DNA from: Balanoglossus misakiensis
Taxonomy: Eukaryota; Animalia; Hemichordata
Direction: 5' to 3'
DNA: 64,000 nucleotides
Assembly (NCBI GenBank): GCA_040954595.2
Contig: CM082596.2
Coordinates: 5,282,791-5,346,790, forward strand
Shown: piece by piece, positions 11,301 to 61,600 of the stretch
Position numbering within the stretch: the first letter of the stretch is position 1
Layout: each line of letters starts with the position of its first letter
The notes under the pieces: model-generated
Database searches by the model: none
Seen by the model: the letters and a program-made list of their open reading frames with translations, nothing else
Told to the model about the DNA's origin: nothing
Program-made: the position numbers and the translations under genes

Positions 11301-11361
11301 GTCTTTGGAAAACTTGCGACGCGAGAACGGGAACGTGAATCACGCCGTTGAAATCACGTGA
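5312..11361 (+). CDS. TMEM26: Transmembrane protein 26; exons 5312-5502, 9504-9672, 10576-11361
   Basis: Spliced product MAVVTLVKACAVRALFAAHG...GKEWKW/FCPSVLFYLGSVLPCMWIMEL.../...GRWILPKGEITRDQLSQLLLVYIGIAADILEF...QDGPYL..R...FFTCKN matches TMEM26 hallmarks. GT-AG junctions are phase-consistent (2, 0). Confidence 0.9.
7843..7972. repeat. Degenerate (CAC/CAT/AAC)n trinucleotide microsatellite
   Basis: accaccaccatcacgaccaccatcacaatcatcatc... in TMEM26 intron 1. Confidence 0.85.
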
Positions 11362-16468: not shown

Positions 16469-17305
16469 AACTCCTTCTTCATTGCCAAAATTCGGAGTAA
16501 AATCAGCAACAAAACGGACCAGAAGACACCAGAGTACGCCTGTAATTGTCCCTCTTTGACCCTGTGCGGAGGACAATACAGTAGTAAATCTTTATCAGTT
16601 GCAAACCAGTGAAGCGAGAAAAGTTTTACCTCCCAAGGTGCATTGTTAGCGACAGATAAAGTCCTTATTCCGCACAGCAAACTTATACACTGAAAAAATT
16701 CGCTGTCGTTTAGTCCCGCAGCTTAGGAACCACCAGTTGTCCTCTTTTCATCTGGTAGTTTAATTGAGAATTTTAAGACTACATATTCTCTCACCTTTCG
16801 TTTTTTTCTGCCTGGTCTATGACCTTACGAGGAACGATTTGAGTGAGTGACTTTGGTTGACATTTTGGCCTACACAAGTCAAACCTAAGTCAAACCCCCC
16901 TCTTGCACAAACACATTTTTCACTTTGGTAATCACAAATAAAAGAACTACCACATAGTCACTAGAAGACATTGAGCAGATTTTAAAAAAAGACCGACAGA
17001 ATTTATTTGGGTAAAAAAGGTGGCCAACTTGTCAACATGATCTGAATAATTATGACTGACATAATACATGTATTGTAACAATATTAAATGTTTTTTTAAC
17101 AAGCTGCCGTTTCTGTTTGTAAATATGTACACTGGGCAACAGGTTTTGTATGGTTCAAGTCGTTCAAAATTCCAGAAATCTCTTAAATATCCAGGTGATT
17201 TCCAAGAAGGATGCCATGCTCGTTTCTGAGAGTGATTGTGCACTGTATTCTTATCAAGCATTTTGCTTTCGCGATTGATCAATAGTTATCCTGGTGGTCT
17301 ATGAG

Positions 17306-20300: not shown

Positions 20301-22978
20301 TCCGCCATCTTGTTGCAGCTCTTGTACACCCTGGATAGGTACAGCCACTGTTGTCTGCTGTTCCTATAAAAAAGAAACACAATGTTATTGTTAGAGTTGG
20401 TTAGCTGTTCCCCTAGTAAATATCTTATATATTGCAGCATTTTGAATGTGCTGGATAGATTTACCTGTCTGTTGGCACAACATTTTCAGTGTTCCATCCA
20501 AGTCGGGTTGCAGATAACATCAATAAATTGTGCAAGCTGGACCACGGACTGTCAACCTGGCTCTCTCGCTCAGTCAGTCCATCAATGTGCGTATACCTAC
20601 CAAAGAAGACGGACAGATTACATAATCATTGTTCGCACACACAACAGAGTAACTCATAGCAAGCTCACAAGCTCAAGTACCTTGATGACGATGAATCTGG
20701 AGACTTGAGTGGACTCTTGAAGCCAGAGCCATCCAACTTGGGCCTGACCACAAAGCTGACGTAGAACTCCACCGATTTCTGCAGCCACTTGGACAGGTGT
20801 TTGTTGCTGTACTGGGTGTCGCGGTTGGACAGAATGATTGGCAGCACATCACACACTGCAAAGAAACAAATCGAGACAATAGGTGATTCTCTACAGATTG
20901 TGAGATCTTGCGAGACTTGGCTAATTAATGCAGCAACAGGTTGCTAGCCAAGTAATAAAAGTAAGGCTTTGTATGAAACTAGAACGGGTGCAGATTTTAA
21001 CAAAATTTTGTGCTGTTTAACATGATGGGCTACGTTTTGTCCTTTTTCAAATGAGAATGTCCTCCCATATAAACTGCCCAGCCACGCGATATCTCGCAGG
21101 CCTTAGGTAGTCCATTCATACGACATTCATGTTACTGGTGATCTACGGACATACCAAGAAGTTTCCGGAAACAGTTGACCGGATTCCTCTCCGCTTGCAT
21201 CTTTTCTGCATTCAACAAAGTCTCAACGAGCTTGACCTGAATTTGAAGGAAAGCAAACATTGAATCCTGTGGGTTAAAATTGTACAGCACTTCAAAAAAT
21301 ATTACTCTATACAGCATTTGGTTTAATTTGATTAAGCTTGTTGCTTGATCATTTGTGATCATTGGTGATCGAGACAATAACTTAGGTGGTGGGAACTGCC
21401 CTTTTCAGACCCACCCCTTCGCTCCTCCGCAAATATATCTCGGTGGGTTGTGATTTGTCAGGTGTGACTTACCCCATGGGTCACGGCAGCTGTGGAAAAT
21501 CTACGAAGCAGGAGAAGCTGTAATTTACAGTGGGCCATAATGTCCTTGGTATGCTCTGTGGTGAGAATAAACAAATTGCACCAAATTGCGTTAATACACC
21601 ATGTTCCATCACAAGAAATCAAACAGAATGAATGGTTCCACAGATTTTACATGATCGAAGGCTCAGTGTTTTGAAATTGTTTCACATGATGTCTGCAAAA
21701 CTGGTGGATTTAAGTCAGACTGCCACACTGATGATAATACATATACTCAAACACAGCAATGGCCACACACAAAGGCAATACCAAGCTCAGATACATAACA
21801 AGTGTCTTTACAAACCTGAAACTTGGAGTAAAATGTCGTGCTGTGCTTGACTTGGCAGCGCTTCAAACAACTCTGTAATGCGATGAGATACAATGTAGGG
21901 TTAACCCTTTCGCATACCACATGGTTTGGTCCAAACCCATTGTTTTCTATGATGTAATTTGACCTCTATATAGGAAAATGGGAGTAAAAGGGGCTAAGAG
22001 TTGTCAGGACAAATCTGATGGTGTTTTTTGGTACACTTCATCACAATGCAAGTACTGGTATATTCTGATTTATTTTCTCACCTGAGAGGAATGTGGTATA
22101 TGGATCTGATTGGTCAGACTGCATCGCCATGGTGATGCAGTGCAGCTCTTGCCATAAGGTGGCCTCATGATGGAACTGAATGAATCTGTGGGAAGAGTAC
22201 AGTGTGTGTGGTTATCTACCATACCATGAATTTACAGTGATGGTAATCATGGGCATCCGATTCCATATCTAATTCTAACAGATGGGAGGAATGTGATGGG
22301 CGTTCTCTATATATCAAAATCATACTTACAGGTTGTACAGTGATCTCGCAGCTTCCTTCAGCTGCCTTGAAGATTTAGCAATGCAGTATGACTGGTACTG
22401 GCAATTGAAACACGGTATTGAGAGGTAGGAGTTAGTGGTTTCGTGGTGGGACTATGTAGCTGCAGTTCAGTAGCTAGATTTTACCATAGACAGTAGAGGG
22501 GGTATGAATTCCCCCCTCTACTGTCTATGATTTTACACAGCCCTGCCACGCAGCGCTTAGCAAGGCAAAATCGATCCACAGAACTGCACCTGTGGGCTGT
22601 GGTGTGGGAGGGGCCTACAGGCCTCCCAGTCTATGAAACGCATGTATTTGTATCGTTGCTGTATCACAAGCCCTCAAATCAACAACTCGTAGCCCCAACT
22701 GGTACAACTGTAAGATACAGGAACCGATTCACCTCCAAGGTACAGTTGTATCAGCGGGGGCTTCGAGTTGTTGATTTTAACAGATTGTCTAGTAGGCATC
22801 ATTCATCGCATAGGTTTATCCCCGTCGAACTTTTTCCACTCACCTGGATCCCAAAGTCTCGCGGAAATAATGCTCTTGCAGTCAACAACCACGCTTTGGC
22901 GGCCGTAGGGTCCTTTACAAGCAAACCCTGTGCAGTCTCGACCAACCACTTCTGGTCTGCTCCACGAAACGTCGCCAT
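17306..22978 (-). CDS. INTS10: Integrator complex subunit 10, about 18 exons (first 22978-22844, 22397-22330, 22185-22082 ... last ending 17306)
   Basis: N-terminus MATFRGADQKWLVETAQGLLVKDPTAAKAWLLTARALFPRDFGIQ; internal NPVNCFRKLL/VCDVLP, ILPYCIKLILMCFK, ELALGHMITMMQYDWP; C-terminus RTVTRGVTKGGEEDFKIAMEKQMARCDENL. All match INTS10 as I recall it. Several internal exon borders were only approximated. Confidence 0.92.
17781..17900 (-). other. Probable U12-type (minor spliceosome) GT-AG intron in INTS10
   Basis: 5' splice site GTATCCTTT. 3' end ...TTATTCTTACAAGTCTCACAACACAG has no polypyrimidine tract next to the AG. Flanking exons join in frame (FNYVI-H-VDVLEEIAYL). Confidence 0.8.
18452..18603. 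repeat. 41-bp tandem repeat (~3.7 copies) spanning an INTS10 splice acceptor
   Basis: Unit TGTCACAGGCTTTCTGATTGGATGAAACGGAAAAGAGTGAG starts at 18452, 18493, 18534 and 18575. Confidence 0.92.
21901..21997. mobile_element. ~95-bp piggyBac-like MITE, copy 1
   Basis: TTAACCCTTT...AAAAGGGGCTAA with internal CATGGTTTGGTCCAAACCCATTG and GACCTCTATA, shared with 43514-43606 and 51184-51276. Confidence 0.65.
22485..22529. repeat. Perfect 18-bp inverted repeat (hairpin) in INTS10 intron 1
   Basis: CATAGACAGTAGAGGGGG-tatgaattc-CCCCCTCTACTGTCTATG. Confidence 0.85.
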
Positions 22979-37800: not shown

Positions 37801-40800
37801 CAAGCTAGCTGCCCCAGCAAATCGCTACAATTCGCCAACGAAGTGGACAATACACACTTTATTAGCGGTGCACCGCAAAGGGGATCGCGTTAGATCCAAG
37901 ATGTCGCCGCTGTCATGGCAACGCCGCTCGACTTCTTAAGAATCGGGCCATGAATGCGGGGATGCGCGCCATTGTTCTGGTCATAAACTGACACTCCTTG
38001 ACCGGTATTATGTCAGTCACAGTGATCCCTCTCCCAGCGTTGTCTGCATAAAACACACGGCTTTATACAGAGGGGAGCGATGACACAGTCAGTGTTGGCT
38101 TTGACTTTGGTCTGTTTTGCATGTCAAAACGAAAGACACGTCAGCGCTCAGGGCGATATCAAAGCTTTGATAACTCTGGTATAAACTGTTGGCATTATTG
38201 TCCTATTTTTGCTTTGTTTTGTGCATCTCCTGCAGTTTCTTGTTCAAATCTTGTATGTGTGATGAAATATCTTAAACTTGTCAACTCAAAATGTGATATC
38301 CCCACTCCATAATAGCAAAATGATTCCTGTGAAATCACCGAGAAACTACTATTTTAACTCTACGAGGTGTTGCTATTTTATCATGCTATTATAACCTACT
38401 TGACAACATCTGCTGAAGCAAATACCACAGCAGTTATGGTTAGAATCATACTAAAAACGGAAATTGTTAAGTAACTGTTATTAAACTTTGCAATTTTTTT
38501 CATTGATTTAAAAGTTATCCTATTACACTAAACTAATGCTTCCATTAATGGGATTTGTGTACAGTTACTAAAAATGGACAGATAGAATAAGTCACTGAAA
38601 TGGGACACTTGAAATTAAAAAATACACATCAAATGAAGGTAATATGGATCGAAGATATACAAAGGGAGCTTTAGGTCCGAAAATGAATAAACATAAGCAT
38701 TAAGTATGTTGTCAACACTGTCATTAGGAGAAATTCATAAATGATTATTGGCTATTTGCGATACTGGCAAAGACCTGGATGGGCGATCATAATTTGAATG
38801 CGAACGGATAGGGAGTACTTGTTCGGATGTTCTGCTCAGGATGGAGACTTCTCATAAATTGTGTGCGAGTCCTACGCGTAAGGTTATTTCATTCTTATCA
38901 ATAGGTTCCCAGAAATGTTGGTCTCTTTCACGGTTTTACGCTCAAATCAATCCATACTTGATTTCTAGCTCAACTTCAAAATGTGCCGTGTGCATCAATT
39001 GCGTAGTCATTATTTTCAACCATTTGACATAATTTCACATTTTACAAAAGCGAGAAAAAAAACCTAAATAAAACAGGGAATAACCATACAATGGAACACG
39101 GCGAAATCTTACACTAATTCGACTTTTCTCCCTTTTTTTCAGGAGGTCGATGTATTCGTACGGTGATGTACAGCGCCATTGTACTGGTGTTTTTCACAAT
39201 GATCGTGTCATCGTACGGTAGGTATATTTTGCAGATGAAAATCTGAACATGATTTTTAAGTTGGCATATTCGAACAGGTGGTCACAATGCTTAAAAAAAC
39301 ATACCGACTTTTATTCGTTGTCAAATATTCCATTTTGTCCTTTTCATTTTGATGTCGCGACCCTGGCTATATGTTAACATTTATGGCACAATATCAATTT
39401 TACAAGCTAACGTATTGTCTCACGTCAACATAGTTCTCAATGTCCTCTTTGTTTTGTTTGCTCGCCACAGAAACTGGGCAGAGCAGCGACCAGGCGCGTC
39501 TGCTGAAGGCGCTCTTTGACGAGAGTGGTTACAGTCCGAAGATCAGGCCAGTCTGGGACCGATCGTCTGTCACTAACGTCACCATGACGCTAGTGCTGGC
39601 CACAATCATTGATATGGTAGGCGTAGCATTAAACTGTTAACTAAACACCTTACTGAGACAGATAGAGGGGGCCGGACAGGCCGTTATAAACCCAAACAGA
39701 TAGTTGTATCTGAATATGACAGACAGACAGATAGACTGCCTGGGATAAACAGATATGACAACTGCATCAGCTCCTGATGAGAATTTTGTCTGGGTGTACA
39801 TACCATGTCCGGCTCCATCTACCGTACATTCAGCTCTCAGACTGTAACTATACTGAATATAAACAGAATCTACCGTGATGTGAAAATCAACAGAGACACT
39901 GTTCAACCTACCCTAGTATTTCACACCTCTCCAGAGCTTCAGACACATTATCCACGTAAAGGCCTAGGTCAGTCCTGGGAACAAAACACATGACAGTTAC
40001 AAAAAGGTTTCCACAACCTAGCCATGTTATTTTCAGAAACTCAGCCACTAGCAACCCAGTCATGTACTTTAAATTTATCCTGACGAAACTGATTTACAGC
40101 TGTAATGAAGAAATAAATGTAAAATATTTAGAAAACCACATTTTTGTCACATTTGCCATCAGGATGAACGTAACCAGGTATTGAAGAGTAACATGTGGGT
40201 CTCTTTGGTAAGTTGATTGCCCTCTACAAAATCCTAAATTGCAGCATCATATTTCCATGTCTTTAAAGTTGTAAAAATGTACCACTGTCGATATCTGGCG
40301 TGATCAGCTGTGTGCAGCAACGAAACAAATGTTTGAAGTGGGATTGAAATGTGTAATTTGGTTTTCAAATAATATTAATTAACAGCTTGACAACGAGTGT
40401 CATTTTTGCGTTTTTGGTAGAATACACCTTCTTGGGTTCGTATGCTTTATAGGTCGAATTTGAGAGTGTGAGATTTGCTAACTTGTCGATTGTGTCTTTA
40501 CAACTGAAGGAATGGAGGGATGAGATGATGCTGTGGAACCCGGATGACTTCGGTGGAATTGAGAACATCAAAGTGCCATCCCATGATGTCTGGCTGCCCG
40601 ATATTGTTCTCTACAACAAGTGAGTTAGCTTTTCTGGAGATCCATCCTTTTCTGGAAATCATTTGAGTTGAAGTCAGCCAAACCAGAAAGCGGCAAACAG
40701 TTTTTAATTTTACGTCGGATGCAAAAGAATAACTTTTGTGGCAAAATGTCATCATCATGGACAGATGTTGCAAGAGAATACTGACAAAATGAGAATGTTT

Positions 40801-42488
40801 CCTGTCCTTTGCAGTGCTGATGACGAGTATAAAAATTTTCTCATCAAGCAAGTGGCGATAGTCTATCACGACGGCACAATTTTATGGGCGACGCCCGTCA
40901 TCTACAAGAGCTCGTGCGCGGTTGACGTCACCTACTTTCCGTTTGATGTTCAAAACTGCACCATGAAGTTTGGGCCATGGCAACATGACGGAACCGAGGT
41001 GTACATGTATGGCAATAGTAAGTGTCCATACTGCAGGTTTTGAAATAATTACATGTGAACTCAAGCTTTATATAGGCCTATAGGAGATGGAACAACATAC
41101 ATGTAGGTTTTTTATCATCTATGGATAATCTGGAGGACTCCCCCCGACCTCACCATGGTTTTGATGACACCCCCAGCCCCCTGTCATAATTTACGTTTTT
41201 AACATTCTAAAAATAAACATGGAGTACTTTTCAACCCACAGGTGACACGACAGAATACGAAAGCGACGGACAGTGGGATTTGCTGTCAATGACGTTCGAT
41301 GCCCACGTCGAATTCTACCCCGACCACCCGGGCATTCCGTACACTGATGTCACCTATCACGTCATGCTGCAGAGACGGCCTCAGTACTACGTGTTCAATT
41401 TACTGCTTCCCAACGCGCTGTTCACGGTCGTCACCGTGACGGTGTTTTATCTCCCGCCGGAGTCGGGCGAAAAAATCAGTTTGAGTATTACAATTCTCCT
41501 GTCGTTGACTGTGTTTCAACTTATGCTTGCGGATTTCATGCCACCCTCAAGTTATCTACCATATATAGGTGAGTGAACATGCAGTTCTCCCTTGAAGATT
41601 TTCAGAAGTATTTCAAATCTCTTTGCTGTATTAAAGGTACAGTCACCTGTGCAAATTTAGCTACAGTTACCATGGTAAATTGAGATCTAGCCAATCACAG
41701 ATTTTCAGTGGGTGGCACAAGCGAAAAAAAGAGCGCCACCATATATGGGCGTATATAGATTGGAGGTGACCATCTACCTTTAAGATGAGCACTGAGAACA
41801 TAAATGTTACTGGACATGTGTAATTGTTGTATGCCTATTTTTACCGAATTCAAAATGGTATCGGACATTCGCTCTCAAAATGATTTTTCAGAAAAATCTC
41901 CATGACGTCATATCTTTCTCATTTCCAGGTTATTACTTCGTGAGTGTGATGGTACTGGTCTCCATGTCGCTAGTTTCCTCCGTTCTCGTCGTGAACATTC
42001 ACTTCGGCAACGCTGAAGAAGACGGAATGCCGCACTGGGTGAAGCGGGTCTTCCTCGAGTACCTGGCGAAGATTCTCAAAGTCCGCCAACCGCCAAAGGA
42101 GCCGCCCTACCAGTCGAACATCTCCTCGCACCGCCTGGAGGAGCTGAAACGCACCCCAAAGTACCTCCATGCCCGCATGAGCAACGGCGAGGTGCTGGTC
42201 CCCCTCATGAGGAAATACAGCACCGACCGAAACTACATCAACGGCACCCACCACCACCACCACGCGAGGAAAATCAAAAGCAACCCGTGCGACGAGAGCG
42301 AGATAGTCATTGAAGTTTTGGAGGAGGTTCGAAAAGTAGCAAGGTACCACGAGGGAAAACGGAGAGAGGAGATTCACAAGAGAGACTGGAAAATTGTGGC
42401 CATGGTACTCGATAAAATATTCCTTATAGTGTATATATTTGGAAGTATTCTGGCTGCTGTGTGGTTTGGTGGTCAAATGTCAGCGTGA
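34873..42488 (+). CDS. Nicotinic acetylcholine receptor-like Cys-loop cation channel subunit, formally non-alpha; exons 34873-34885 (tentative), 39143-39217, 39471-39616, 40163-40207, 40510-40619, 40815-41017, 41242-41568, 41929-42488
   Basis: Signal peptide, then [26 protein letters not shown], Cys-loop [50 protein letters not shown] (cationic GEK), and [14 protein letters not shown]. All junctions are phase-consistent. Alternative start is ATG 39166. Confidence 0.93.
41631..41783. mobile_element. Kolobok/T2-like MITE, copy 2 (nAChR last intron)
   Basis: TTAAAGGTACAGTCACC...GGTGACCATCTACCTTTAA; interior similar to the reverse complement of 43822-43935. Confidence 0.7.
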
Positions 42489-43238: not shown

Positions 43239-45570
43239 TCAGAATTTGAATAACCTGATGTTGGTACAGGCACTGAAGTAACATGTCCCAGCGCAGGAGT
43301 TCCCGTCCCACAAATCCACATGACCAGTTGCCGTGGCAAAATTACAACCCTGGAACACTATCAGACCTTTTGATCCCTGTAAAAAGTACAGGAAAAGATC
43401 TTATGTCATATTGCATGGTCCTTCCAAATCAATATTTATTATTTTTTTAATAGCTGCAGCTCTCTCGCGCTTGATTATGAACCTATTATAGGCAATATGT
43501 CGCGCGAATCATTTTAACCCTTTCACCACCATGGTTTGTTCCAAAACCATTGTGTTCCATGATAAAGTCAGACCTCTATAAAGGGAACTGGGGGTGGAAG
43601 GGTTAAAGGCCTGGTAGCTACCTTGTTTTCTTACATTTGACTGTACTACCAGCCCTATACCCCATATACTTTGAACGTCAAGTATTGCAATATTGCGAAC
43701 AGCTCCCTGTATGGGTAACGTTCTGACATATTGTTGATCATGGTAGCCAACAATAATAATGAACACTACACATACATGGAAAGTGTTTTCAAGGTAAATG
43801 CTGGGCGTTCAAAGTTAAGCCTTGAAGGTATACAGTAACCTCTAATTTACCACCCCTGAAAATCTTTAATTGGCTAGATCTCAATTTGCCATGGTAACTG
43901 TGGTTAAATTTGCATAGGTGACTGTATACCTTTAAGACAAGGAGTTCTGGATGAACCAACAAAAAGTAGATGTGTACATTAGACTCTCTCACAGCCCACG
44001 GTTCGCTACAAGGCTCTTCACTGATACGCCCGGCCTCAACTGTTTAGCAAAGGAGAAGCCCCATATCATATGGTGTTGTGTAGCGAACCTTAGAGCCCCT
44101 CTCGCCGGGCACACATGCAATCAGTCCATAAGCCTGCATGGACGACGAGAGGGGCTGTGAGAGAGTCTAATGTGTACATGCACAGTGGCTGTGAAGGATA
44201 GAAACCATTCTCACCTTGAACGCTGCTTGGTTCTTGGATACAATGTCTGCCTTGCCTTTGCGTGACTCCATGTAACACCGCATAGTGACGACACGAATGA
44301 TGTACTTGTCTCCATCGGCATTGCTTACTTCTGCCCAGTTGCATTGGCCTATCTTGATATCATTGAACTTCCGACCTGCTCAAGAAACAAAATAAACCAC
44401 TGGTAAGCATATGATACATATACACAATTCACCATTACACCAATATCTCATGAAAGTAATGATACAGTTGACCAATCCGAAAAATGTGATGTTTTAAAGA
44501 ACCAACTGGATTCACTGTCTTTCTCTCTGCACCTTTGCACCAAAAACTTGAGTACACTATATATACAAACCTGATGCAATGAATGAGTAGCTCACACGAA
44601 TAGCACAGGAATTCTGTCCAACCAACCACTTCGGAAGTTTGCATTTCTCGATCAATGCTGGAGATTTCTCGTGGGGATAGTTGCGCCACAAACTGGTGAA
44701 AGTTGGCCAAGCGTTTGAGCCTGTATGAAATAAATTACAAAATCATTTTATCGGCCATCAACAGAGTCAAGAACTCACTTTTTCAGTCTAGTGATAAGTT
44801 CATCATTTTCTTGTGTGAGCTTTTTTTTATAAAAGCAGTTCAGAAAGGCATTTGCAGAATCATTTTATACACAATATACAATTCAATATATATTTCGTTG
44901 CAATATAATACAAAATGTACCTACCGATCACATCTGACTCTAAAGTTGTAAAGTTTCCAAACTTTAAACGAAAATCCATACATCCTTTGCACTCGCAGTG
45001 TGAGGGCGTACTTCCACACCAACCAAGGGAGGAACAGCACGGAAATTGGCCGCGAGGATCACACTCGCCCGCAAAACCAGATGCAACGGGCCACTCTCGA
45101 CCACATCGACCGTCACTTCTCCATCTATCATCTGGGTTTTTTAAAAATACACCGCCAAATAATAGATCTTAATCTAAAGCGTTTTAAAGATCATGCAATC
45201 GGTGCTTGACCTCGCACGAACCCAATGGTGCCGTGCGTTCTCTTTTACTGTTTTAGTTTCACTTTCATTATCCTGTTCTCTTATTAAAGAGTGACTCTGC
45301 AAATTTCTGTGTGGCCTTTTCCATGTAATCGAAGTAAAATGCCAAAGTTGATTTACCCAAAATGTAGTTGGGTCACTTCACCTATACTGGGGTAATCTAA
45401 GGTCAGATATGCAAATTTTTCTCCGTGTGTCGTGAGATATCATATGAACAAAGGCGGGGTTACCCCACTTCAAATTCCAATCTGACGAGAAAACCCGCCC
45501 GAGTTTACTCACCTGCTGAAGCCAAAGTGATCAGCAACAACCCGGCAAAAACCAGAGAGCCCCTCGTCAT
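43239..45570 (-). CDS. Secreted chitin-binding type-1 (hevein-like) domain + Tae4-family peptidoglycan amidase fusion (dae4-like), 237 aa; exons 45570-45513, 45131-44925, 44720-44571, 44375-44215, 43376-43239
   Basis: Spliced ORF of 714 nt, all GT-AG, phases 1,1,1,0: MTRGSLVFAGLLLITLASA-DDRWRSDGRCGREWPVASGFAGECDPRGQFPCCSSLGWCGSTPSHCECKGCMDFR...-WPTFTSLWRNYP...NSCAIRVSYSFIASG...DGDKYIIRVVTMRCYM...GKADI...FKGSKGLIVF...ATGHVDLWDGNSCAGTCYF...LFKF*. NxCxIRxSY, YxxRV, GxxGxIxF and TGHVxLWxG are the Tae4 motifs. Confidence 0.88.
43514..43606. mobile_element. piggyBac-like MITE, copy 2 (intron 4 of the amidase gene)
   Basis: TTAA-CCCTTTCACC...GGTGGAAGGG-TTAA; TTAA flanks with CCCTT/AAGGG termini. 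Confidence 0.72.
43822..43935. mobile_element. Kolobok/T2-like MITE, copy 3
   Basis: TTGAAGGTATACAGTAACCT...AGGTGACTGTATACCTTTAA. Confidence 0.7.
43980..44169. mobile_element. 190-bp MITE with 18-bp TIRs and a 10-bp target-site duplication (Academ-like TAG...CTA termini)
   Basis: TAGACTCTCTCACAGCCC...GGGCTGTGAGAGAGTCTA flanked by ATGTGTACAT at 43970-43979 and 44170-44179. Confidence 0.82.
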
Positions 45571-45640: not shown

Positions 45641-45688
45641 GGAAGTGAAACTATGGTGACGTCACATGAGGCCAAGACAGTGACGTAA
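45641..45688. promoter_or_regulatory. Motif cluster just upstream of the amidase gene: ETS-IRF composite-like site, perfect CRE, CRE/CEBP-like site
   Basis: GGAAGTGAAACT (45641-45652), GTGACGTCAC (45656-45665) and TGACGTAA (45681-45688), 70-120 bp upstream of ATG 45570. Confidence 0.5.
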
Positions 45689-48809: not shown

Positions 48810-51800
48810 TCACCACAATGGAGTAAATTCCATGTTTGAAAATCCAGGATCTTCCTTGAGCTTCCAGTATTTGTTGTTGGTCACCCAACATTCCTTGCCG
48901 TTGTCCGTGTCTTTCCTGCAAAGAAATAAGAAGGATCACTCATCAGTTTTCAGTCACGCATTGGGTTCTAGGACAGCTGATGTAAATGGCCAAATATTTG
49001 TTTAAGCACTGTATGAAACCTTCCAATGACGTCACACAGCAGGTCACCGGGGGGTCAGAGTGCAAAGGTTAAAACTATGCAAGATATATCATCTAATAAT
49101 GAGTTCAGCCACTCACTTGAAAAATAATGGTTCATGGGTGAGGTTCTCCTCTTCCCGTTTCTTCCGTCTATTTCTCTGTAGCATTTCTATTCTGGCCTTT
49201 TCCTTCTCGGCTGAATCTACGTTTCCTTCTTCCATCATTCTGTCGAAATAAACGAAACAGCAACATTACACTACAGTTGTGGTATAGCTCGATACTTCAG
49301 CTCGATACTTCAAGGATATAATCTGGGGGCTGCAAACACAGGTTACAACATAGACTCCATGAGTTTTTCATATGCGAAAGTGACTTCATGTGAAAGCCAC
49401 TGAAGATAATCAGCTTGTGCGAACACAATGACATCTTTCATGGCACTGGCCAAAAACATACATGACATGCTTTTGTATTGATTCAATCAATTTACCTCTG
49501 GTCCGTCCTAAACCGGGAATCGGTTGGCGGCAACAGGTGCTTTGTCGTGCTGTCAATTTCGTTCAACTCTGTCGCAAACCTGGTGAAACCATAGTAGAGA
49601 TCAAAGTCTTCTGGCATAGCACCTGCAAATCAAGGAGACAGAAATCAAGTTATTGATCCATACAGATGGTTGAAAGCATTTAGGTTGGATTTAATACTTG
49701 AGATGCCTGGTATATCACGAATTGCTGGAGTCCAACAGTGCATTGGGTGAAATATGATGGACCTAGACTGCGTGCTTGTACATCTATGTGTGCATCCATC
49801 CACCATCAAGAAGTATAGTGATATCACTTATATTCGACACACTGATCAAAAGTGATGCAAGTGTCAATGCCACAAGTCAAGGATGCAACGATGTGGAATT
49901 CAACATTCTTCATGATCATCATTGTCAAGACAAACATGTTTTGATGACAGATCTTGATTAACTCATACAAATGTAAGAATGCAGACCACCACTTCATATT
50001 TTTTTTCGTGAACCCACCTGGTCTCCATATACACTTGGCCGAGCCCGACACTCCACAATAAAGACCTTCAGTCCACTTGCCGAACAGATGGTGCACAACC
50101 TTGCCGCTGTCCGTAATACTGCCGTAGACTTCGTAACGCTTACTGCTGAAATAACTGGCCTGAAATTAACCACAAGCAGTGAACTTCAGCCTCTGTACAT
50201 CAAAAGGGTGACATACATTCTCAATCTCCACTCAAGGTCAACAGCATTGTACTTCAAAACACTGAACAAAAAAATATGTTTCATTAAGTTACAAAAGTTA
50301 CAGGTGCTATCCTTTCAAACTATGGCTACAAGTGTCTTACCTTAGCAAAGGTTAATTTACAACAGATGGCGCCATTCTTGATAATCATTTCCCCATACTG
50401 ATCCACCCAGCGTTGACCACTCAATATGTTATGTACACATGTGCTGACTTTGTTCCATCTATAGTGATCACCATATCTGGAATGCAATTAAAGATGAATG
50501 TAAGATTAAAATCACATTGTGAACATTCCACGGGATACTAGTGGAAAACAAGGAAGTACTAGGTGTCAGCTTTAAAAGTTCCAGTACTTGCATACAGAAT
50601 ACTGAGACTCAGAATATGATAACACTTACTTTGGTATTGTCAGATTGACAACACCCACTGGCTGAAATTCCATCGACTTGCCCCAGAACTTGGTTTTGAT
50701 TCGTACATCCTGCCACAGGCAATAGTTTTCACTTTCGCAATGACAGGCTGATATGGGTGGGTGATGGGAAACCTGTTCAGCGACAAATTTGAATCCTTTG
50801 TCGTCCCTGACTGCTTCGTACGTCTCCCCTAGCAACGGATTGAATGGTTTCTGCCCGGCACGGAATTGCGAGGCGGAGTACCCAGACACGGCGAAGGTGG
50901 CCACCAGAACCATTCGATCGTACGGGTTGTCAGACAGACATGCCTTGTCGATTAAATCACTGTACTCCATCTCCTCACATAAACGCTGAAAAAAAAAATA
51001 TTCGACAGTGTTTTCAAAATTACACACAGAAAAAAATCATCCTGTTTAATAATAGTGGGAATTAAGTTTCCTTATTCAAGATGCCATTGAAGTTCTGTCC
51101 ATCATTTTTATTGTGATAGTGTATTAGTTTGGGGAATTTCAGGGACCTATATACACTTTGTGTTCATGAGGTGCATTCTGCCTGTAACCCTTTCACCCCT
51201 GTTTCCTTCTATAGAGGTCCAACTTTACTGCAGAGAACAGTGGATTTGGACCAAACCATGGTGGTGAAATGGTTAATAGTAAATATGAGCAGAGAGACAG
51301 GTTAGCCAGGGTGATTAACATGATGGCTACACAGTTAAATGATATCTGATCCGACGTGACAATGGGAGATTCACCTGGAGCATGCTGAGCGGTTCATTCA
51401 ATGTGACCGGCATGGACACCTTGGATAAATCTTTGCCGATATTCTTCTTCAACAAATTCCACAGACTGAAATCCCCCGTGTCCGGTTTGGGAACCGGGAG
51501 TTTGCTCCGTCTCCCAGTCTGGGAATAGCTAGGCCGTGTCTCATTCTCCACAACTGAAAGTTTATCAAACACAAATTTGTCAGTCTTTTTTTTCTCTTGT
51601 ATTCAATATCGTTTGCTATCCATCGTCAAGACTGGTGCTTTCATAAGTAACTTACTATTAGTACATGAAAGACAAAGAGTGATAGCTGAGATCCAGTGTT
51701 ATCATTAGTATGTTAGGGATTACAACTGAAGTTAGTAACACTGAAATCCATTCTAAAATACACATAGTGTACAGTATACAAGCATTGTGCCATCAAAGGT

Positions 51801-54800
51801 ATGCAGAATGAACCAAAGTATCCTTCTTTGCAATGACTCAATTGGAGTGAAAATTCTGTCAAAATTCACACAAATCCCACAAAGAGCATACACATGTTTC
51901 ATATCACTTTTTATAGCTTACCACTGCTTGGACACTGGGACTGGATGTCCAGGGTTTCTTCTGAGTTGTCGTCTTCATCACTGAGCATGCTCGAGTCCAG
52001 TTCGTCTTCATCGGAAGGCTGCGTGGAATACAAGCAAAACACACTACATTTACTGTCAATGTCTCGTAAATGAAATCGGGGGGAACCTTAGCCTGCTCAA
52101 TAGCTGTGGTTATAGTTACATGATCAGGTGTGTACACGATGTTAAGTGGGCCAAAACATGGACTTATCTGCATTGTAGTGTTCAGTTTTCTGAATGCCTG
52201 TTCAAATATAGATCTTTATTATGTTTTTAAGATTTGAGACAGAGACACTCACTTCAGTGGATGAGCTGGATGCCAGGTACTCCTGTGCGTCAAAGAACTC
52301 CCCAACATCAGATACTGACATGGTTCTTTCGTGAGTTGTATCTCGTATCAACATAGGACTTGAAACTTTAACATCAGTCGGCTATGAATAAAACAAGAAT
52401 AAAGTTTAATACATACTGTGTTGGATATTCATGTTACGAATAAAAAAGGGCACACTTTATATTCAAGAGAAAAGTCATACTGCTGCATAACATTAAAAGG
52501 GGGAATAATAAAAGTGTCAGGGTTTGTTTGAGGTCATCTGTGTACGTAACTGTCTGCTAGTCTATTGCTCTATCTGCCTACCTGTCTCTGTCCTATTGTA
52601 CACTCTCATCATGTGTCCACCTCGGTCAAGATACATGTAAGATCTATTCAACCTTTACCATGCTGACATTTGATATATCTTGTACAATGTGTCTCACAAT
52701 ATCTCAAGGGCTTATCCCTTCATATGTTTGCCGTTTTCAGTGCAGTGGGTGTTGTGAGAATCATGACTGTGAGTTGAGTGAGTTGGTGAAATCACGACTG
52801 TTTACCTCGTCTAGATTTGCAACAGGTAGCATTGGTGTAGTGGAGAGGTCAGATTCTAGGAATACCCTCTGAAGCCTTCCTCGGAGATCAGTGTTTTGTG
52901 CGTATGCCTGCATCAAAGCAAATGACTGAGCATGAGTCATCTGGTCTATAGGAAAGTTTTTTCATTTACTTGGATTTTCATCACAAATATCAGAATTGCA
53001 ACTATCAGTGGTCCTGTTTTAAGTCTAGTGCTTGTGAGTAATGTCGATGTATAAACAGATTTGTGCTAGTAATGGGATTTGTGTGTTTGAAATCAGCAAT
53101 TTACTGCTAGATAGTTTTCAAACAATACTTGTGATCTTTGAATATAGCAAGACAGTGCCCATGATGATAACATGTGGCCCTGCATGTAAACTTCAATGCT
53201 GAAAAGCACCCCTGAATTCTTACCTGTTTAAGCTGACTTTGAAGTAAATGTATTTGCTTGTTTGCTGGTAGGAACTCCTGTTCCAAAGCCTGCTGCATCT
53301 TTTCTCGTTCCGACGTCATCGTGTGCAGCAAGCCGCGCATGTTTTTATGCACTGGGGACGGAAAGAAGATGTGAATGTGTTGAGCAAAATGTGGAGGTAA
53401 CACAACCCAGGTACATAAAACATTCGTCAGACGTGACAGGCAGCTGACATATGACGTTCAACGATAACAAGCAGTGTCGATCAAACTCTAACCAGGTCTA
53501 AATCATATTGATGTATGTCAATCACAGCGTTCAGTTTAGACACGTACCTTCATTTGCAGTGGTTATAAATTCCTCCCGGACTTTGTTCTCGTGTTCTTTC
53601 TGCTTGGCAGCGTTGCGGAAGAGTCGGTGGTTGGATCCCTCGTTCTTCTCCAGATCATCTATGTTGATATCCGGCAGATTCGGATTGGAAGCACTCAGTC
53701 GCATACTCTGTTCTGATGCTGATAACTGCAAAAAGAGAAATTAGAAACATTTATTTGACAATCTAATCTGAGTAGAACGATCCAGTTTCCTGCATTGTCA
53801 TAAATTCTCCAGGGATATTTTGTAAGCATCTTTTCAACACTCTAATGGTACTGATGAAGGTACAATGTTTTGGAACACAAAATCACACGAAGTTGCTCAA
53901 CAGAATTTGATGACTTGTCACAGTTTTTTCAGTCATTTCAATTCCTCAATGATTATGAAATTAGTTGATTCATTTTCAAACAACTCAATGTACATGTATG
54001 TGTGCATATCTTTGTTTTAGTAATGAGTACAATGGTATGATGTTAGTTAATATGCAATTGATCCTGAGAAATTCCATCCTAAACTTCTTCCTGCCAATGC
54101 TATGTTCTTATTTTTCAGTGAATGACTGACTCTAATTCCTGGCTCACATTATACCATACATTTTCATTTTGACACCGACCAAAGCCAGACCGCACACTGA
54201 CACACAAATTAATTTGATAATGGGAAAGAAATGTTCTTTCTCCTGGGAATGACTGGCCATGCTAACAGACTGTTTCTGGTTTGCGATAAAAAAAAAAAAA
54301 TCTCACTAGATGACTGGTTTGGTTAGACATACACAGTGCTGAGTCATTCACATCTAAGCTTAGAAACAAACGTGCAATGGACGAGATGCAAATATCACAA
54401 TTTAGTGTACAATCATGCCTATACACGTATCACTCTCAACATGTACCTTCTGAAGGGATCTTATCGTGGGGTAATAGAGTTGAAGCTGAACAAGAAGAAA
54501 GACATACGGACAAGGAATTAAAAATAACTCCAATTTTCGGCAATCACAATTAATCAGTGAGAATACATGTAATACTATTATCACTTATCTCCTAAGGAAT
54601 CCCTTGTTACATATTAATGAATATAGATATTAATGATGAGATTTATTATATTTATAGGGATTTTTTATTGTTTTCATAAACTGGGAAGAACACTGCAGTG
54701 TCAAAGTAATCATTCAAAAGCCTCTAATATGCAAAATATAATTGATTTTGAAAAATCAACCACCGATTAATTATGTTCGGCTAAGCTTGCAACATGAAAT

Positions 54801-57800
54801 GATAGGCAATCATTCTATTCATTGGATTTGAATGGAACTGTCATGATCTTTACACATCACATTTTGAGACACACTTTGGCTGTCATCTTTTTATAATCAA
54901 TATCACCTAAAATTTTCTATAGTAGAAGAATCATTTCACATCAATCTCATTGTCATAATATTACAATAACTGTCCTTCATTATCATGACTTACAGCTGTA
55001 CAACGATTTCTGTAATTGCAAGTGAACTGTGTTTGTCTAGATCAATATTTTTGTCTGTGATTTCATGGAAGAACCATCTTACCCTGTCAGGTGACGGTGG
55101 CATTTCAGGAATTTTCTTCTTCGCCTTGCCTTTTCCAAATGACAATCGTCGACTTTTCTTCGTAGATGCTGGAATATCGAGCTATGAATAGGAACAGAAA
55201 TCACTTGACTCAGCGGGGATTTGTGAAGAATTCTGCCACCCTACTAAATATTACTGCACGCAAATAAATACATCAAGAGCAAATCTTTCCAAACTGTTCA
55301 ATTCATACAACGATAAAATATGCAAATGCATTCAGAACATAATCACTACTGCAAATTTGTCATGCAGATTTCTGAGAAGCTCGGAGACCATTTTCAATTC
55401 CACATTTTAAAATTTAAGATACTTTTCTTATTGTAATCCACAATGCATCATGTCAATGCAGTGTTTCATTTAGTACACCACGGTATGTGGGAACTGCTTC
55501 CTCCCCCAATTTTCCTGAGGAGGAGGGGGGACTGTTGGGAGACTTGAAATCTAGCCACGACTCTATGCACAAAATGGCTGCAGTTTGCGCAGTGAATCCC
55601 ACCAACGTCAACGATGTACAATGTGACGTTTGCCGGCAGCTCGACATTCATCTGGCCTTACCTCGTCCAAGAGAGGCAGCTGCTGCAGTTCTTGTAGTAA
55701 ACTCGTCAAATGGAACACGCTGCTCTGTAATGCTGTTAACTCTGCAACAGGAAACAAACAGCCGCATGAGTGAATCAAGAACTCAAGCAAGAGACAAGAA
55801 ACAGCCCACACACACACAGCATGAACAGAATAAACACAATGGGTGATCTCTGATAAATCAGTACCAGTATGTGGGCGTGTGATATTTATCCAAGTCATTA
55901 TGAATATGGATGGAATGCAACTAGAAGATGATTATCATGTAATCAAGGCTTATTTCAAATACAGGCTGTGGGGTCATTCCATTTTGATAGTCCAAGCATT
56001 ACAATCTCCTGACTGACATAATTGTTGGGGACCAGCCCACTTCATTTTATGCAAGAAAAAAATACTAGTACCGGTATATATACCTTTATTGCACTGGTTT
56101 AAATTCGCAGTATCGCTCAGCCAAGCGGCGACCCTTTCCTGTCCCAGCGAAGTCTGACTCTGCAGCGTGGAACTCCTGGACCTGGAGGGGTCCTGTCGCA
56201 GTCCTGCGTGGATCTGCCGGCGCCTGGCCTCGGCTAGAAGCGGCGAGGAGAAGTAGTCAACGCTTGGCGATGCAATGTTGACCAGATTGGGCATGTCCTT
56301 CGAGCCGAACTGCAGTTGGTGCTGGCGGTAGAGGCGGTGGCTTCGCAGCTTGGCTATCCACTTATCAAAGGAGTCTTTTGTCTTCGCCTGTAACGACACA
56401 AATCAAATTAAAAGATTCATTTCGCTTTATTTGTAAAATTTCAATTAGTGACATAAATTTCATTCTTAGCTCAGTTCCTGTACTGTACAGTATGGGGGCA
56501 TATTTGCATAACAACAGGTGTAACTTAGACCTATTGAGTTTCTATTGTTGGAGAACAGGGGCCCCTATGTTTCATAAGAGCTGTGGGCAAAACAACTGAT
56601 TCTTGTAAGTGTCTACCGGTACTCTTAGGGGGTTACTGTACCTTGAGATGAAATATGGACTCTTCTGTGTCCAGGTCAATTCTTCGACTGTCCGACATTA
56701 TTGCCAGTACTGATAATCCCACATCAACACGACCATGCAATTTCCCCTTTGATATCTGCAATGCATATCAATGAGGAGCAATGAGAAATAGAAGAATTGA
56801 GTTTGTATTCAGTTTAGTTTATGGGGCAGTGATAAAGTAGGAAACAAAAGTGAGGGCGCCACCACTGTTTGAAATGTAAATCCTCGTTGCTCAAAAAAAA
56901 AAATAAACAGATTCAAAGACTTGCATCACAAAAGCCAATCAAGAAATTTCCATTACCCTATCATCTTAGCTTCTCTGTTATCAACAAATCTTTATCATTA
57001 GATCTGATAAATGCCAATGTTGCTATTTGTCACTGACAATAATAATATCCTAGCGGAGACAGCTTCTGCTGCTCTGAGATGATGCATTTCCTGACAGAGA
57101 TCAATGATGCCATAAAGTGTCTACAGCCATAACAACAACCTTTGTCATTTACACAAGCTCAGAAAAATCTCTCATGCTTTTGTATTTGCCAAACTTATCG
57201 GGGGCCATTTCACTACTTTAAAGTAAAATGCACCATGAAGAATATTTTTTCATGAAGGAGATTCTTTTAAACCTGCCAATTCTTTGCTATTTAAATTATT
57301 CTTGATGACAAAACTTTAATAATGACTGATACACAGCAATGCCCACTAGTTAAGGGAGTATAACAAGGTAGTAAAATTGACATACAATGAAGTAATATTA
57401 TCAAAATGTAAATAGCACCAAAGTTTCAAAATTTAGCTAAATACTTACATCTGAAGGCGTCTTGGCATACCTGAGTTCACCTTTATCAAGTATGAAATAT
57501 CTCTGAAAATTGAAAAAAAAAAAATCATCAGTCTGGAACAGCGCCCCCGTGTGGTGAAATTATACAATTCTATCACCTTCTGAACTGACCATCTTTGGAT
57601 AAATATAGTATATAGTTGCCAAATGTCTGAGACAAGCATCAATTATGGTTCATGGCACTTGGTTAAAGCGATCGCTTTAGAAATTAGTTATATGTGGAGC
57701 ACACTGCAGGCATCGCAAGGCAATTTTTTTATTTAAACAACCAATAAAATCTCATCAGGCCCTTGTTTGCCTACATCCAGCTGTCTCTGACTGCTGGATA

Positions 57801-58671
57801 TTTTCTTCATCTTTGAAGATGATTAAGATTCATACAGAATCAATGAAATGACCTTCGGAAATCTTCGACAGGAAATAAAGTATCCCAGTCAGTACGCACT
57901 TCAGAGCTCTTGTTGCAAGCGGGCCCTGAAAGCAGCCCTTTCAAGCAGCAAAATTACATTGTAAGTACTGCCACTTGAATGGTAGCTACAGATCGCATAC
58001 ACAATATCAGATTATTGAAGCAGCATATAAGCCTGTTATATCTACACCGATGGAGCTTTGCTGATATTTCAAATGTGGTGACCTTCACTGACAGAAAAGT
58101 GGGAGTCAGTAAACACTTGAGAAATTGTTAACTACTGTCTAATTGTCTTCGATTGTTTGTGTGTCTGTCTGTGTGTGTGTGTATCATGTATGTACATGTA
58201 TATCTGTCAGTCTGTCTGTCTTTGATTGTGTGTAGGTGTGCCTGTATTTGATTGTGTTTATCTGTGTGTCTGTCTGTGTGTCTGTCTGTAGGTGTGCCTG
58301 TATTTGATTGTGTTTATCTGTGTGTCTGTCTGTGTGTCTGTCTGTCTGTCTGCGTGTGTGCATGTTTGTCTGTATCTGTCTACCTGATTGTCTCACATTG
58401 AGATATTCCCCTGCAATACACCCACCTTGTGCCAACCTTTCATCGGCCATTTTCTCTTCTTCATCAGGAACCCATCATATTTTCCCGGCTCCTTCTCATA
58501 CTTTTGTCCCTCTTTAAGTCCTTCCACAATCTCCCAGTTACTCCGATCCAGAGCGGCTGATGGGGGCTGTGAGCCCGACTGGTTTTCAGTCTCCACCAGA
58601 TTGGTCGGCGATTTCGACGAGTTGCTGGAAATTTCATTTCTGTTGACAGCTTCACTGTCCTCACAAAAACT
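48810..58671 (-). CDS. OSBPL6: Oxysterol-binding protein-related protein, ORP3/6/7 subfamily (PH + FFAT + ORD), about 18 exons; first coding exon possibly 62369-62322
   Basis: PH start [16 protein letters not shown]; [13 protein letters not shown]; FFAT EFFDAQE (52300-52280); [28 protein letters not shown]; [12 protein letters not shown]; ORD signature EQVSHHPP; [11 protein letters not shown]; C-terminus [19 protein letters not shown] (TGA 48812-48810). Likely co-orthologous to OSBPL3/6/7. Confidence 0.92.
51184..51276. mobile_element. piggyBac-like MITE, copy 3 (opposite orientation)
   Basis: TAACCCTTTCACCCC...TATAGAGGTC...TTTGGACCAAACCATGGTGGTGAAATGGTTAA is similar to the reverse complement of copies 1 and 2. 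Confidence 0.68.
58155..58381. repeat. TG/TGTC-rich simple repeat containing a 56-bp tandem duplication
   Basis: Two copies of TAGGTGTGCCTGTATTTGATTGTGTTTATCTGTGTGTCTGTCTGTGTGTCTGTCTG within a (TGTC)n/(TG)n tract. Confidence 0.8.
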
Positions 58672-61600
58672 CTGAAAACAAAAAACAGATACAGAATAAT
58701 GAGAAAGGGCAATCTTTGTTGCTTTTATATTTTTATATCGCTCAGGACTCCAATAGAAATCGGCCTGAATGCAAGTGACAGACATGCAGATTACTGACTT
58801 TTTAAAACCTTCCATCCTTCTTGATGTTCTAATACGTTTTTGGATAGTTAATTTTAAAGTAAAACCCTTGGTTTCCTACAATTCTCAAGAGAAACATTGA
58901 CTTCTCAATTGGCTGCCCACACATCATATTTCACTTGACAACTCTGTCATTTCTTCGCAGTGCATGTACGTCATCAAATTTTCTGAATCATTTCATGGTG
59001 CGGCATATTTCAGGAGTCAATTCAGAAATCCTGCATTTCGGTTCAGTATTCATCTTAATCACGTCGGCTCTACACGTATTCAACTCTTGCTATTCCTCTT
59101 TCATCAGAGTCGTGTTCAACAGCAAAGACGGGACACACGCACTCTGAGTCAGCCCCAGTTTTGTTGTAAAGGAGGCTTAAACATGGCATGCGCATGAATT
59201 CTGAAAGGCGTCGTTTCAATTTCCATGACAAATTGAACTGTACGTGTTACGTATGAATGTGGTTTCTGCACTGTGACAGGTTACAATCACAAATAAAGAT
59301 TACTTCATCTACTATCCTGACATAGTTCGTGACACTCTACATGCTGCATCTGTCACTTCACGTCAAACACGTTTAAAAAAAGCCTTGCGTGTACACTCAA
59401 GGAATGCAACACCTAATTTGCGTCAAATTGAAATGCGAGTAGACTCTCCTGTCGATAACCAATGACGGAAATGTACATTATGTAGCTGACAAAAGGTGTA
59501 AGGAAAGCGCTTTTTCTTCCTTTCCTGTTCTGTTACTTGTACAACTCTGGTGACAGCAACAAAGGGGCGCTACAATGTCATTTTGTCGCAGTGTCTATCA
59601 TTTACGCAAAGCATACAAACATGTAGTTTCTCTTGCTGTACACTCTGGTTCTGCTCTAGGCTAACAGCGAAATTAAGCCATATGAAGTCACTACAAAATA
59701 ACTCTGTAGTATAAATTAATTATTTTCTGAGTAAAGATAAAACATGTCTACCAGTATCTCGCTAATAATACAAGATGAAACACGTTTTCCTTATGGTGAT
59801 GAGTCTAACACCTAGATATATTTGGAGATAACATCATATTAGAGTAATTGCACTAACGGTACACTGATTTAAAAGACACATGCACTTTGGAGTTTTAGAC
59901 TCATGATATCTCACCTCTCTTATTTTTAACGCACTTCAGACTTTACAGACACAGACTAGCTGAAGATGAGATATTGGATAAGATTTGGATACCTGTATAA
60001 CCATTTTGCAAATGGCAAGGTAGTATCTGTTTTTACTTTGCAAGTAATATCTATGTCAGACATCCCCAGCTAAGAAGAGCAAGGTAGTCCTTCATTTCAT
60101 ACTTCATTTCCCTGCCGTTAATTTCATACAGTATATTGATATTGCACCCACACTGATGTTCAGGCTCTGAATTGGATGATATGCCAATAAGCGTTTTTTT
60201 TCTAAGGATTCTGTATTACAGATGTGAGTCCTATCCAACAGCCTGTTTGACATTCAAACCACGTCACCACTCAGAATTCCAATCACACACAAGATTCCTT
60301 TCGCTCCCCGAGCACAATGCCTCTGACCTACTTTCCAGGACAGCTCGCCTTTCCCTCTCATGAACTGCAGACATTCGTTTTTGCTCCAATCTCTGGTCTA
60401 TTTCAGTTTTATGAACCAGACTCCTGGGGGAAACACTTTGCAAAGTAACCGATAAGCATTTCACTTACATTTGCAGATAAAAAAACTACAGTGTCCAAAA
60501 TGCACTTTAAGATTTGCCTTTGTGCAGAAGCTTCACAACTGAATGCTTCAACAAAGTATTTTCAAGACTATATATTACTTTTATTTGACTTGATCCTTAG
60601 ATACTAGTATTCAGTTTTTGTGTCAGTTTCAAGAAATATTATTCATTCAAATTTATCTATTCCTATGAGATTACATTGAAAATTGCTAGATCACACAGTT
60701 CAAAATATTTGTAATTATTTCTCCCAAATAATTGCAAAAACAATCTGACATATTTCATAGCAAAATAAGAAATTATAGCAGCTTGATGTTGAGTGCATGG
60801 CCTGCCACTTTCAATTATTTTTAGCATTGATCCGCTGCATTGTAAAACTGTCATGCATGAGGAATTCTCTCTGCCATAATGAGGCATTTGTTGGATCGAT
60901 TGATGAGAATGACTGTTCAGGTTCCCTGCGCATTAGTGTTATTTACATCAACGAAATTAACTGAGACCTGACATTGGGCTAATGGTTCCTCCTTGGGAAT
61001 ATTATACCGGTACACTCGATCATACCTGATTCTGGGCTGACATAAATTTTGAGTTTTCTGACCTCTGACCACAGTTCAAAATAGCACAGAGTTGAATAAA
61101 CACCAAGCAGATTTAAAGGTATCCATCTCAATCCCTAGTTGAGACATTAGTGGATTAAGTGAATTGCTTGTTCACTGTCATCTTGTAAAAAAAGGTTACC
61201 TGTTTTAGGTCAACTCTGCGTCTGATTTTGATCAGATTAGAGCTGTCACTGCTACTGGTTATTCCAATGAAATGGACATATGTTATAGTGTTAAAAGGGC
61301 CATTGAAATGGACTTACGTTTATGTTATTGTGTTTAGTTTGGCAAATATGACAACAGCTTAGCAGCCATAGGAAACCTGAGAATATGAGAGCTCAACGTA
61401 AGAAGCCATGATGACAATTGCCTGGCAGCATAATATAAACATGACAGATGCTGGCCGACAGATCAATTTGTAATTGATGTCTTCCGCAGAAGCCTCCTTT
61501 GTTTGAACCTCTCTGGCTGCTCATATCCGTGCCAGCAGTGTCCTGTTACAATTATAATTGAAAACAAGTTCAAAGTCCTTTTAGATTCATCAATAATGAT

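Follow-up and report, generated by a model that had tools for sequence, protein, structure and literature searches.

In the 64,000-nucleotide stretch of contig CM082596.2 from the acorn worm Balanoglossus misakiensis analyzed here (the window), the minus strand between positions 43239 and 45570 carries a five-exon gene encoding a member of the animal Dae4 family, joined to an N-terminal hevein-like module. The first-pass annotation, made from the letters alone, had proposed that five exons splice into an intact 237-residue protein related to Tae4, an amidase of the bacterial type VI secretion system (T6SS), and this gene model was borne out. The joined exons comprise 714 nucleotides, equal to 237 codons and a TGA, with no internal stop, and all four introns (381, 204, 195 and 838 nucleotides; phases 1, 1, 1 and 0) have GT...AG borders. 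Exon 1 (45513..45570) contains the start codon and a likely signal peptide (residues 1-19). Exon 2 (44925..45131) runs from phase 1 to phase 1 and encodes residues 20-89, a domain separate from the Tae4 part, with the eight-cysteine hevein-like module at about residues 21-73 followed by a linker. Exon 3 (44571..44720) begins the Tae4 domain and includes the predicted catalytic Cys127, exon 4 (44215..44375) encodes the middle of the domain, and exon 5 (43239..43376) contributes His211, Asp213 (codon 43316-43314), Cys220, Cys224 and the stop codon. As had been noted, two introns, the third and fourth, lie inside the catalytic domain, at residue 139 (phase 1) and residue 192 (phase 0).

Homology supports this splicing. 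The spliced protein aligned with Glandiceps talaboti XP_077997622 (P0121), a RefSeq protein annotated as uncharacterized, with 65% identity over 234 columns (E 1e-115), and because the alignment crosses all four junctions, the exon boundaries are independently supported. P0121 has the same architecture from end to end, differing in its longer annotated N-terminus, and we conclude that the gene is real and animal. The eukaryotic signal peptide claimed earlier is likely: the N-terminus, on an exon of its own, is hydrophobic, the highest 11-residue windows of the whole protein starting at residues 3-10 (maximum 2.84), and P0121 has a matching hydrophobic stretch directly before the same domain start. 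The protein is thus predicted to be secreted.

Assignment of the C-terminal part to Tae4 (PF14113), the match expected by the first-pass annotation, came from a Pfam scan made exon by exon instead of on the spliced product. Exons 3, 4 and 5 each matched Tae4 and no other family, and their matches follow one another along the profile (positions 2-15, 19-64 and 75-108), so the identification is not a matter of chance. On its own, exon 5 scored 30.7 bits, above the cut-off of 27, while exons 3 and 4 alone fell under it (exon 4, E 0.0059). Exon 5 also matched PDB entry 4HFK (E 2.8e-7), and a homologue search with exon 3 returned no candidate. Two relatives scored 77.3 bits (P0121) and 73.6 bits (P0001 of Ptychodera flava) against the same profile. 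P0001 is 84% identical over 134 residues, compared with at most 41% for the non-animal matches shown, and matched solved Tae4 chains at E 2e-13.

Three catalytic residues were recognized by sequence: Cys127 (TGT, 44607-44605) and His211 (CAT, 43322-43320), both at the codons originally assigned, and Asp213, two residues after the histidine. Cys220 and Cys224 form the CxxxC that had also been pointed out, a motif common to this protein and the Salmonella Tae4 as described. In Nematostella LOC5507694, the residue aligned with Cys127 is Cys63, whose mutation was reported to inactivate nvDae4. In the alignment used for the tree described below, the cysteine is kept in 25 of 26 animal rows, the histidine in all 26 and the Asp at His+2 in 25, and this Asp is also present in 43 of 46 non-animal rows. 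The triad reported for Salmonella Tae4 is Cys44, His126 and Asp137, and mutation of Asp137 abolishes its toxicity (PMC3695027); the enzyme cuts the bond between gamma-D-Glu and meso-diaminopimelic acid (mDAP), with Gram-positive walls described as a poor substrate. For the Serratia and Agrobacterium enzymes, the third residue is reported to be an Asp two positions after the His (PMC6277958). Since Asp213 stands at this position, the Cys-His-Asp triad is complete by sequence, and we rejected the idea that the triad is lost for want of an Asp137 counterpart, the His+2 Asp filling that role in two solved Tae4s.

Evidence for the fold comes from a proxy, an AlphaFold model of P0121, whose catalytic domain is 70% identical, made with a 58-sequence alignment. 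The catalytic domain was modeled with a predicted local distance difference test score (pLDDT) of 95-98. Foldseek gave 11 matches at E<=0.001, every one a Tae4/Ssp1 chain, and a second aligner placed Tae4 entries at Z 17.2-20.3 and root-mean-square deviation (rmsd) 1.8-2.0, ahead of the next fold, Tae3, at Z 8.3. The overlay on 4JUR (Z 20.3, rmsd 1.8, 142 aligned) answers the earlier proposal to compare an AlphaFold model with Tae4 structures, and modeling thereby places the catalytic domain in the NlpC/P60 Tae4 fold. The bacterial Tae4s (Salmonella 4HFF/4J30, Enterobacter 4HFK, Serratia Ssp1 4BI3 and Agrobacterium 6IJF) are thus similar in Pfam family, NlpC/P60 papain-like fold and Cys-His-Asp residues, with the His+2 Asp reported for the Serratia and Agrobacterium members. 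In contrast, the B. misakiensis gene has introns, a likely signal peptide instead of T6SS delivery, an N-terminal hevein-like module and extra, animal-enriched cysteines at positions 150, 172, 203 and 229.

The surprise implied by the first-pass annotation does not stand, as the gene belongs to an already described family. Animal Dae4 has been assayed in Nematostella, and homologues occur in acorn worms, amphioxus, sea anemones and a snail. The top 24 proteins listed from a profile search (128 matches, 120 listed) were anemone, acorn-worm and amphioxus proteins together with two of unassigned origin, and an exhaustive search (642 matches) added a Littorina (snail) protein among the 150 matches listed. 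Nematostella nvDae4 is reported to be induced by 2'3'-cGAMP via NF-kappaB (bioRxiv 10.1101/2021.05.13.443009; PMC8713801) and to be a secreted protein that cleaves Escherichia coli and Staphylococcus epidermidis peptidoglycan, kills Bacillus subtilis and loses activity upon a C63A mutation (bioRxiv 10.1101/2021.05.13.443009); the protein of its locus, P0125, has a cysteine at position 63. nvDae4 (LOC5507694) resembles the B. misakiensis protein in family, animal clade and catalytic-domain sequence (46% identity over 157 columns), and it has a secretion signal where the latter has a likely one. It differs in having no hevein-like module, and its activity and NF-kappaB induction are experimental whereas those of the acorn-worm protein are inferred. 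The cleavage of D-Glu-mDAP cited earlier holds for bacterial Tae4, but a strict specificity need not carry over to the family, given the reported cleavage of S. epidermidis peptidoglycan by nvDae4. Tick Dae2 (bioRxiv 10.1101/2020.04.10.036376) is likewise a secreted, domesticated Tae enzyme whose range has widened to Lys-type walls; however, it belongs to the Tae2 family, cuts a different bond, stems from a separate transfer and is reported to owe its wider range to loops of the active site rather than a fused domain.

Several other family members showed unusual architectures. The amphioxus (Branchiostoma) proteins P0130, P0263, P0265 and P0266 are 330-657 residues long, P0130 with three tandem Tae4 stretches, and P0016, named as C-type lectin domain-containing, carries Tae4, hinting at another accessory-domain fusion. 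Ptychodera flava has at least four dae4 paralogues (P0131, P0007, P0001 and P0006), of which P0131 combines DUF6973 with Tae4, and the consecutive accessions XP_070570324/5 suggest tandem copies. Two Logan/ENA records, P0093 and P0127, are kringle-Tae4 fusions placed outside the main animal clade by FastTree, possibly reflecting a separate eukaryotic acquisition. An Atlas cluster of 57 members, all eukaryotic and mostly mollusc (258 residues, Tae4 in 58%, score 0.80), hints at many further Dae4-like proteins in molluscs.

The phylogeny with bacterial Tae4 and animal Dae4 that had been suggested was built as an unrooted tree of 72 of the 274 extracted domains over 166 alignment columns. Nine animal rows were excluded as near-duplicates, as were proteins with insufficient coverage of the domain, and the solved enteric Tae4s were not among the rows. 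Non-animal rows were limited to 15 named bacterial loci plus top-scoring proteins sharing <50% identity with one another; 31 non-animal rows are presumed bacterial, and P0013 and P0014 were counted as animal though of unassigned origin. The window protein was sister to Ptychodera P0001 (99/96) within an acorn-worm clade (100/98). A single branch (99/94) separated all anemone, amphioxus and acorn-worm rows, 25 in total and including nvDae4, from the rest, and inclusion of Littorina gave an animal side of 26 rows (98/88). This placement in the animal Dae4 clade rejects a recent, lineage-specific transfer. Thus, of the claim that the enzyme is a domesticated product of horizontal transfer, the bacterial-type origin stands, while an acquisition in this lineage does not; the sequences indicate that the transfer was very probably ancient and is common to other animals. 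The pattern fits one acquisition before the cnidarian/bilaterian split and patchy retention with losses. In the free tree, acorn worms joined anemones (99/85), not amphioxus, but a tree constrained to hold the deuterostomes together was 1.6 log-likelihood units worse and not rejected (approximately unbiased test, p-AU 0.457), and for this reason we do not claim animal-to-animal transfer.

The data did not support a T6SS effector as the donor. Among 28 frames from eight of 17 bacterial loci, taken with about 3 kb of flank, six contained Tae4, two of them as tips of RHS proteins and one with PG_binding_1, and no T6SS core family was found in these 28 frames. The RHS cases are a cyanobacterium (L001:1-3465) and an acidobacterium (L002:1-3438), in which Tae4 is the C-terminal tip. 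SH3 and extracellular contractile injection system (eCIS) core fusions recurred among 74 longer relatives. Given its occurrence with RHS, SH3, eCIS and peptidoglycan-binding partners, the Tae4 domain also occurs outside classic T6SS cargo effectors. A phage collection yielded one match in 50,697 records, an unannotated 1.4-kb record (35%).

The feature that sets the gene apart from known Dae4 is the fusion to the exon-2 module, which the first-pass description overlooked while giving the catalytic part correctly. Among solved structures, exon 2 best matched the N-terminal domain of the amphioxus peptidoglycan recognition protein (PGRP) BbtPGRP3 (PDB 4ZXM/4Z8I, E 1e-13 and 2.3e-13), and plant heveins matched far worse (E >=0.003). 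All eight cysteines are kept with identical spacing, Cys 29, 43, 51, 52, 58, 65, 67 and 70 equaling BbtPGRP3 positions 27, 41, 49, 50, 56, 63, 65 and 68 plus two. The BbtPGRP3 domain is reported to bind chitin via Ser51, Trp53, Trp55 and His62, and to raise activity about 5-fold on Staphylococcus aureus peptidoglycan and by about 50% on E. coli peptidoglycan, a gain removed in a W53A/W55A double mutant (PMC4610682). Three of these four binding residues are kept (Ser53, Trp57 and His64), and we therefore term the module hevein-like and not a demonstrated chitin binder. BbtPGRP3 similarly places this domain before a peptidoglycan-cutting domain, but its catalytic part, a PGRP amidase, has no relationship to Tae4, making BbtPGRP3 a functional analogue only. 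Atlas leads for the module were all Chitin_bind_1, with scores of 0.86-0.88, below the 0.9 level. Models of the region were of low confidence (pLDDT about 50 in the P0121 model and 45 for single-sequence exon 2), for want of an alignment covering it.

The module is 66% identical between the window protein and P0121, compared with 70% for the catalytic domain, and conservation to about the same degree suggests selection. P0121 was the only one of 281 fetched proteins to carry it; as these proteins were collected via the catalytic domain and exons can be missed in spliced gene models, the true range of the module may be wider. Exon 2 has a phase-1 intron on either side, as would be expected if the module had been shuffled in. 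Among the top-ranked literature matches, we found no description of a hevein-Tae4/Dae4 fusion or of an acorn-worm Dae4, although Chou et al. 2015 may already include dae4 of acorn worms or amphioxus along with its domains, and an amphioxus survey of horizontal gene transfer (PMC13350694) contained no occurrence of Tae, amidase or peptidoglycan.

Putative regulatory motifs cluster at the 5' end of the gene. A site resembling the interferon-stimulated response element (ISRE), of the kind bound by interferon regulatory factors (IRFs) and located in intron 1 (45255..45266, minus strand), is the only strict match in the 64 kb and a possible immune-inducible element, with 0.22 matches expected per window and at least one in 18 of 100 shuffles. 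A near-palindromic kappaB-like site in the same intron (45456..45466) is a weak candidate, being one of five window matches to an 11-bp pattern chosen post hoc, and the canonical 10-bp kappaB consensus did not match at 45456-45466. Upstream lies a cluster (45641..45688) of an Ets/IRF-like site (45641-45650), a cyclic AMP response element (CRE, 45657-45664) and a CRE variant (45681-45688). One 740-bp tile over the promoter and intron 1 contained all five of these classes, ISRE-like, Ets/IRF-like, kappaB-like, CRE and CRE variant, whose patterns were picked post hoc; of 86 tiles, 70 had none, 15 had one and this one had five. The cluster fits immune induction and serves as a lead, not as evidence.

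The surroundings of the gene are those of an animal genome. GC content around it is 0.41-0.42, the same as in the remaining window. Downstream lies a convergent nicotinic-type ligand-gated ion channel gene (40700-42488, plus strand), the two stop codons being about 750 bp apart, and upstream on the same strand is a multi-exon oxysterol-binding-protein gene (about 48810-58900, minus strand). Read-through from the latter was rejected, since that gene terminates at a stop codon near 48810, some 3.2 kb upstream of the Dae4 gene. Further away are exons of TMEM26 (10567-11361, plus strand), a PMP22/claudin-like gene (15054-16591, minus strand) and Integrator subunit 10 (INTS10; 17869-21404, minus strand). 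At the very start of the window, a long open frame of high GC content (2-1252, plus strand), cut off by the window edge, resembles the C-terminal part of a BTB-kelch protein, and a G4-ACA-C5 motif occurs twice, 232 bp apart (4469-4480 and 4701-4712), probably as a local repeat. Neither tblastn nor a six-frame hidden Markov model search revealed a further Tae4 or hevein exon in the window. No Tai4 or T6SS family appeared among the 24 other window frames in a general scan, no window-wide Tai4 profile search having been made. An intron-bearing gene between animal genes is not the Tae4/Tai4 effector-immunity pair of a bacterial T6SS.

Taken together, we consider it probable that the gene encodes a likely secreted Dae4 whose Tae4-type cysteine hydrolase is predicted to cut peptidoglycan stem peptides, and whose hevein-like module probably docks on bacterial walls. 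The order would be signal peptide, hevein-like module and Cys-His-Asp domain. By analogy with bacterial Tae4 and nvDae4, His211, oriented by Asp213, would activate Cys127 for attack on the amide after gamma-D-Glu in the stem peptide. Walls would then weaken, and accessible, mainly Gram-positive, bacteria would lyse, or fragments would be processed for immune control. Exon 2 may have arrived by exon shuffling and, as in BbtPGRP3, may bind N-acetylglucosamine-containing glycan strands and thereby raise the local enzyme concentration. We regard the case for this origin and anchor role as evenly balanced, the anchor role because one tryptophan is missing.

Several observations weigh against this interpretation. 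In the module, Leu55 stands where BbtPGRP3 has Trp53, and Glandiceps has Asp there; the first of two required tryptophans is thus missing from both proteins, and glycan binding is uncertain. The modules of both proteins also score under the Chitin_bind_1 (PF00187) cut-off of 27.8 (exon 2, 19.6 bits, E 0.0011; P0121, 15.9), and the closest relative, Ptychodera P0001, is annotated with neither module nor signal peptide, either a real difference or a gene-model error. In the catalytic domain, the position of Salmonella Asp137 (His+11) is Gly222, so activity depends on the alternative Asp at His+2, and the folded model is that of a relative, with adjacency of Cys and His in the window protein implied by overlay only. 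Finally, in the Nematostella paralogue P0124 (LOC5507684) the catalytic Cys is replaced by Tyr, which agrees with the mention of an inactive copy in that species, and Dae4 membership is thus no guarantee of activity.

The same tryptophan bears on the alternative that the hydrolase is active but the module no longer binds glycan, serving as a passenger, a stabilizer or spacer, or a binder of another ligand. We think this a serious possibility, though we lean against it. The Trp53/Trp55 requirement of BbtPGRP3 was established with a double mutant only, and PMC4610682 is not known to report a single Trp53 mutant; moreover, the retained cysteines, Ser53, Trp57 and His64, and the degree of module conservation, point to selection. 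On the other hand, 280 of the 281 fetched proteins do without the module, and nvDae4 is reported to cleave Gram-positive walls without one. It is distinctly improbable that exon 2 is a cassette skipped in most transcripts, which would yield signal peptide plus Tae4. Skipping between phase-1 introns keeps the frame and would produce a typical Dae4, the acceptor of exon 2 is rich in A instead of pyrimidines, and a shorter isoform annotated in Glandiceps has no module, although it has no signal peptide either. Nevertheless, the Glandiceps X1 model has the module in the same place, and the exon is open and conserved.

What the enzyme is used for is less constrained, as killing, digestion and fragment clearance are indistinguishable by sequence. 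Acorn worms are deposit or filter feeders, and the enzyme could be digestive or scavenging, acting on sediment bacteria or immunogenic wall fragments, instead of an inducible killing effector. We consider this unlikely given the reported NF-kappaB-dependent induction of nvDae4 by 2'3'-cGAMP and the IRF-, kappaB- and CRE-like motifs at the 5' end of the gene, post hoc though these are. Bacterial contamination, recent insertion or a chance splice, for which nothing speaks but the bacterial nature of the Tae4 domain, has next to no probability, in agreement with the earlier argument against contamination. These are refuted by the gene model with its four GT-AG introns, two of them in the domain, by the alignment to P0121, by the tree and by the far higher identity to Ptychodera than to non-animal proteins, as well as by the window-like GC content and the animal neighbors.

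Domestication of Tae4 in B. misakiensis extends a known story by one species, and it is the fusion that could matter. Tentatively, and with more doubt than confidence, we propose a second domestication step, in which an ancient Tae4 was later given, in acorn worms, the module that amphioxus independently fused to unrelated PGRP amidases. If so, two deuterostome lineages would have converged on one glycan anchor, turning different hydrolases on Lys-type (Gram-positive) walls, and the changed binding site, with Leu or Asp for Trp, may have been retuned from chitin to peptidoglycan. The fusion would then exemplify a horizontally acquired toxin that, once in its host, was refitted with host parts, and it allows a clean test of whether the BbtPGRP3-type hevein anchor is a portable device that widens the substrate range of peptidoglycan hydrolases.

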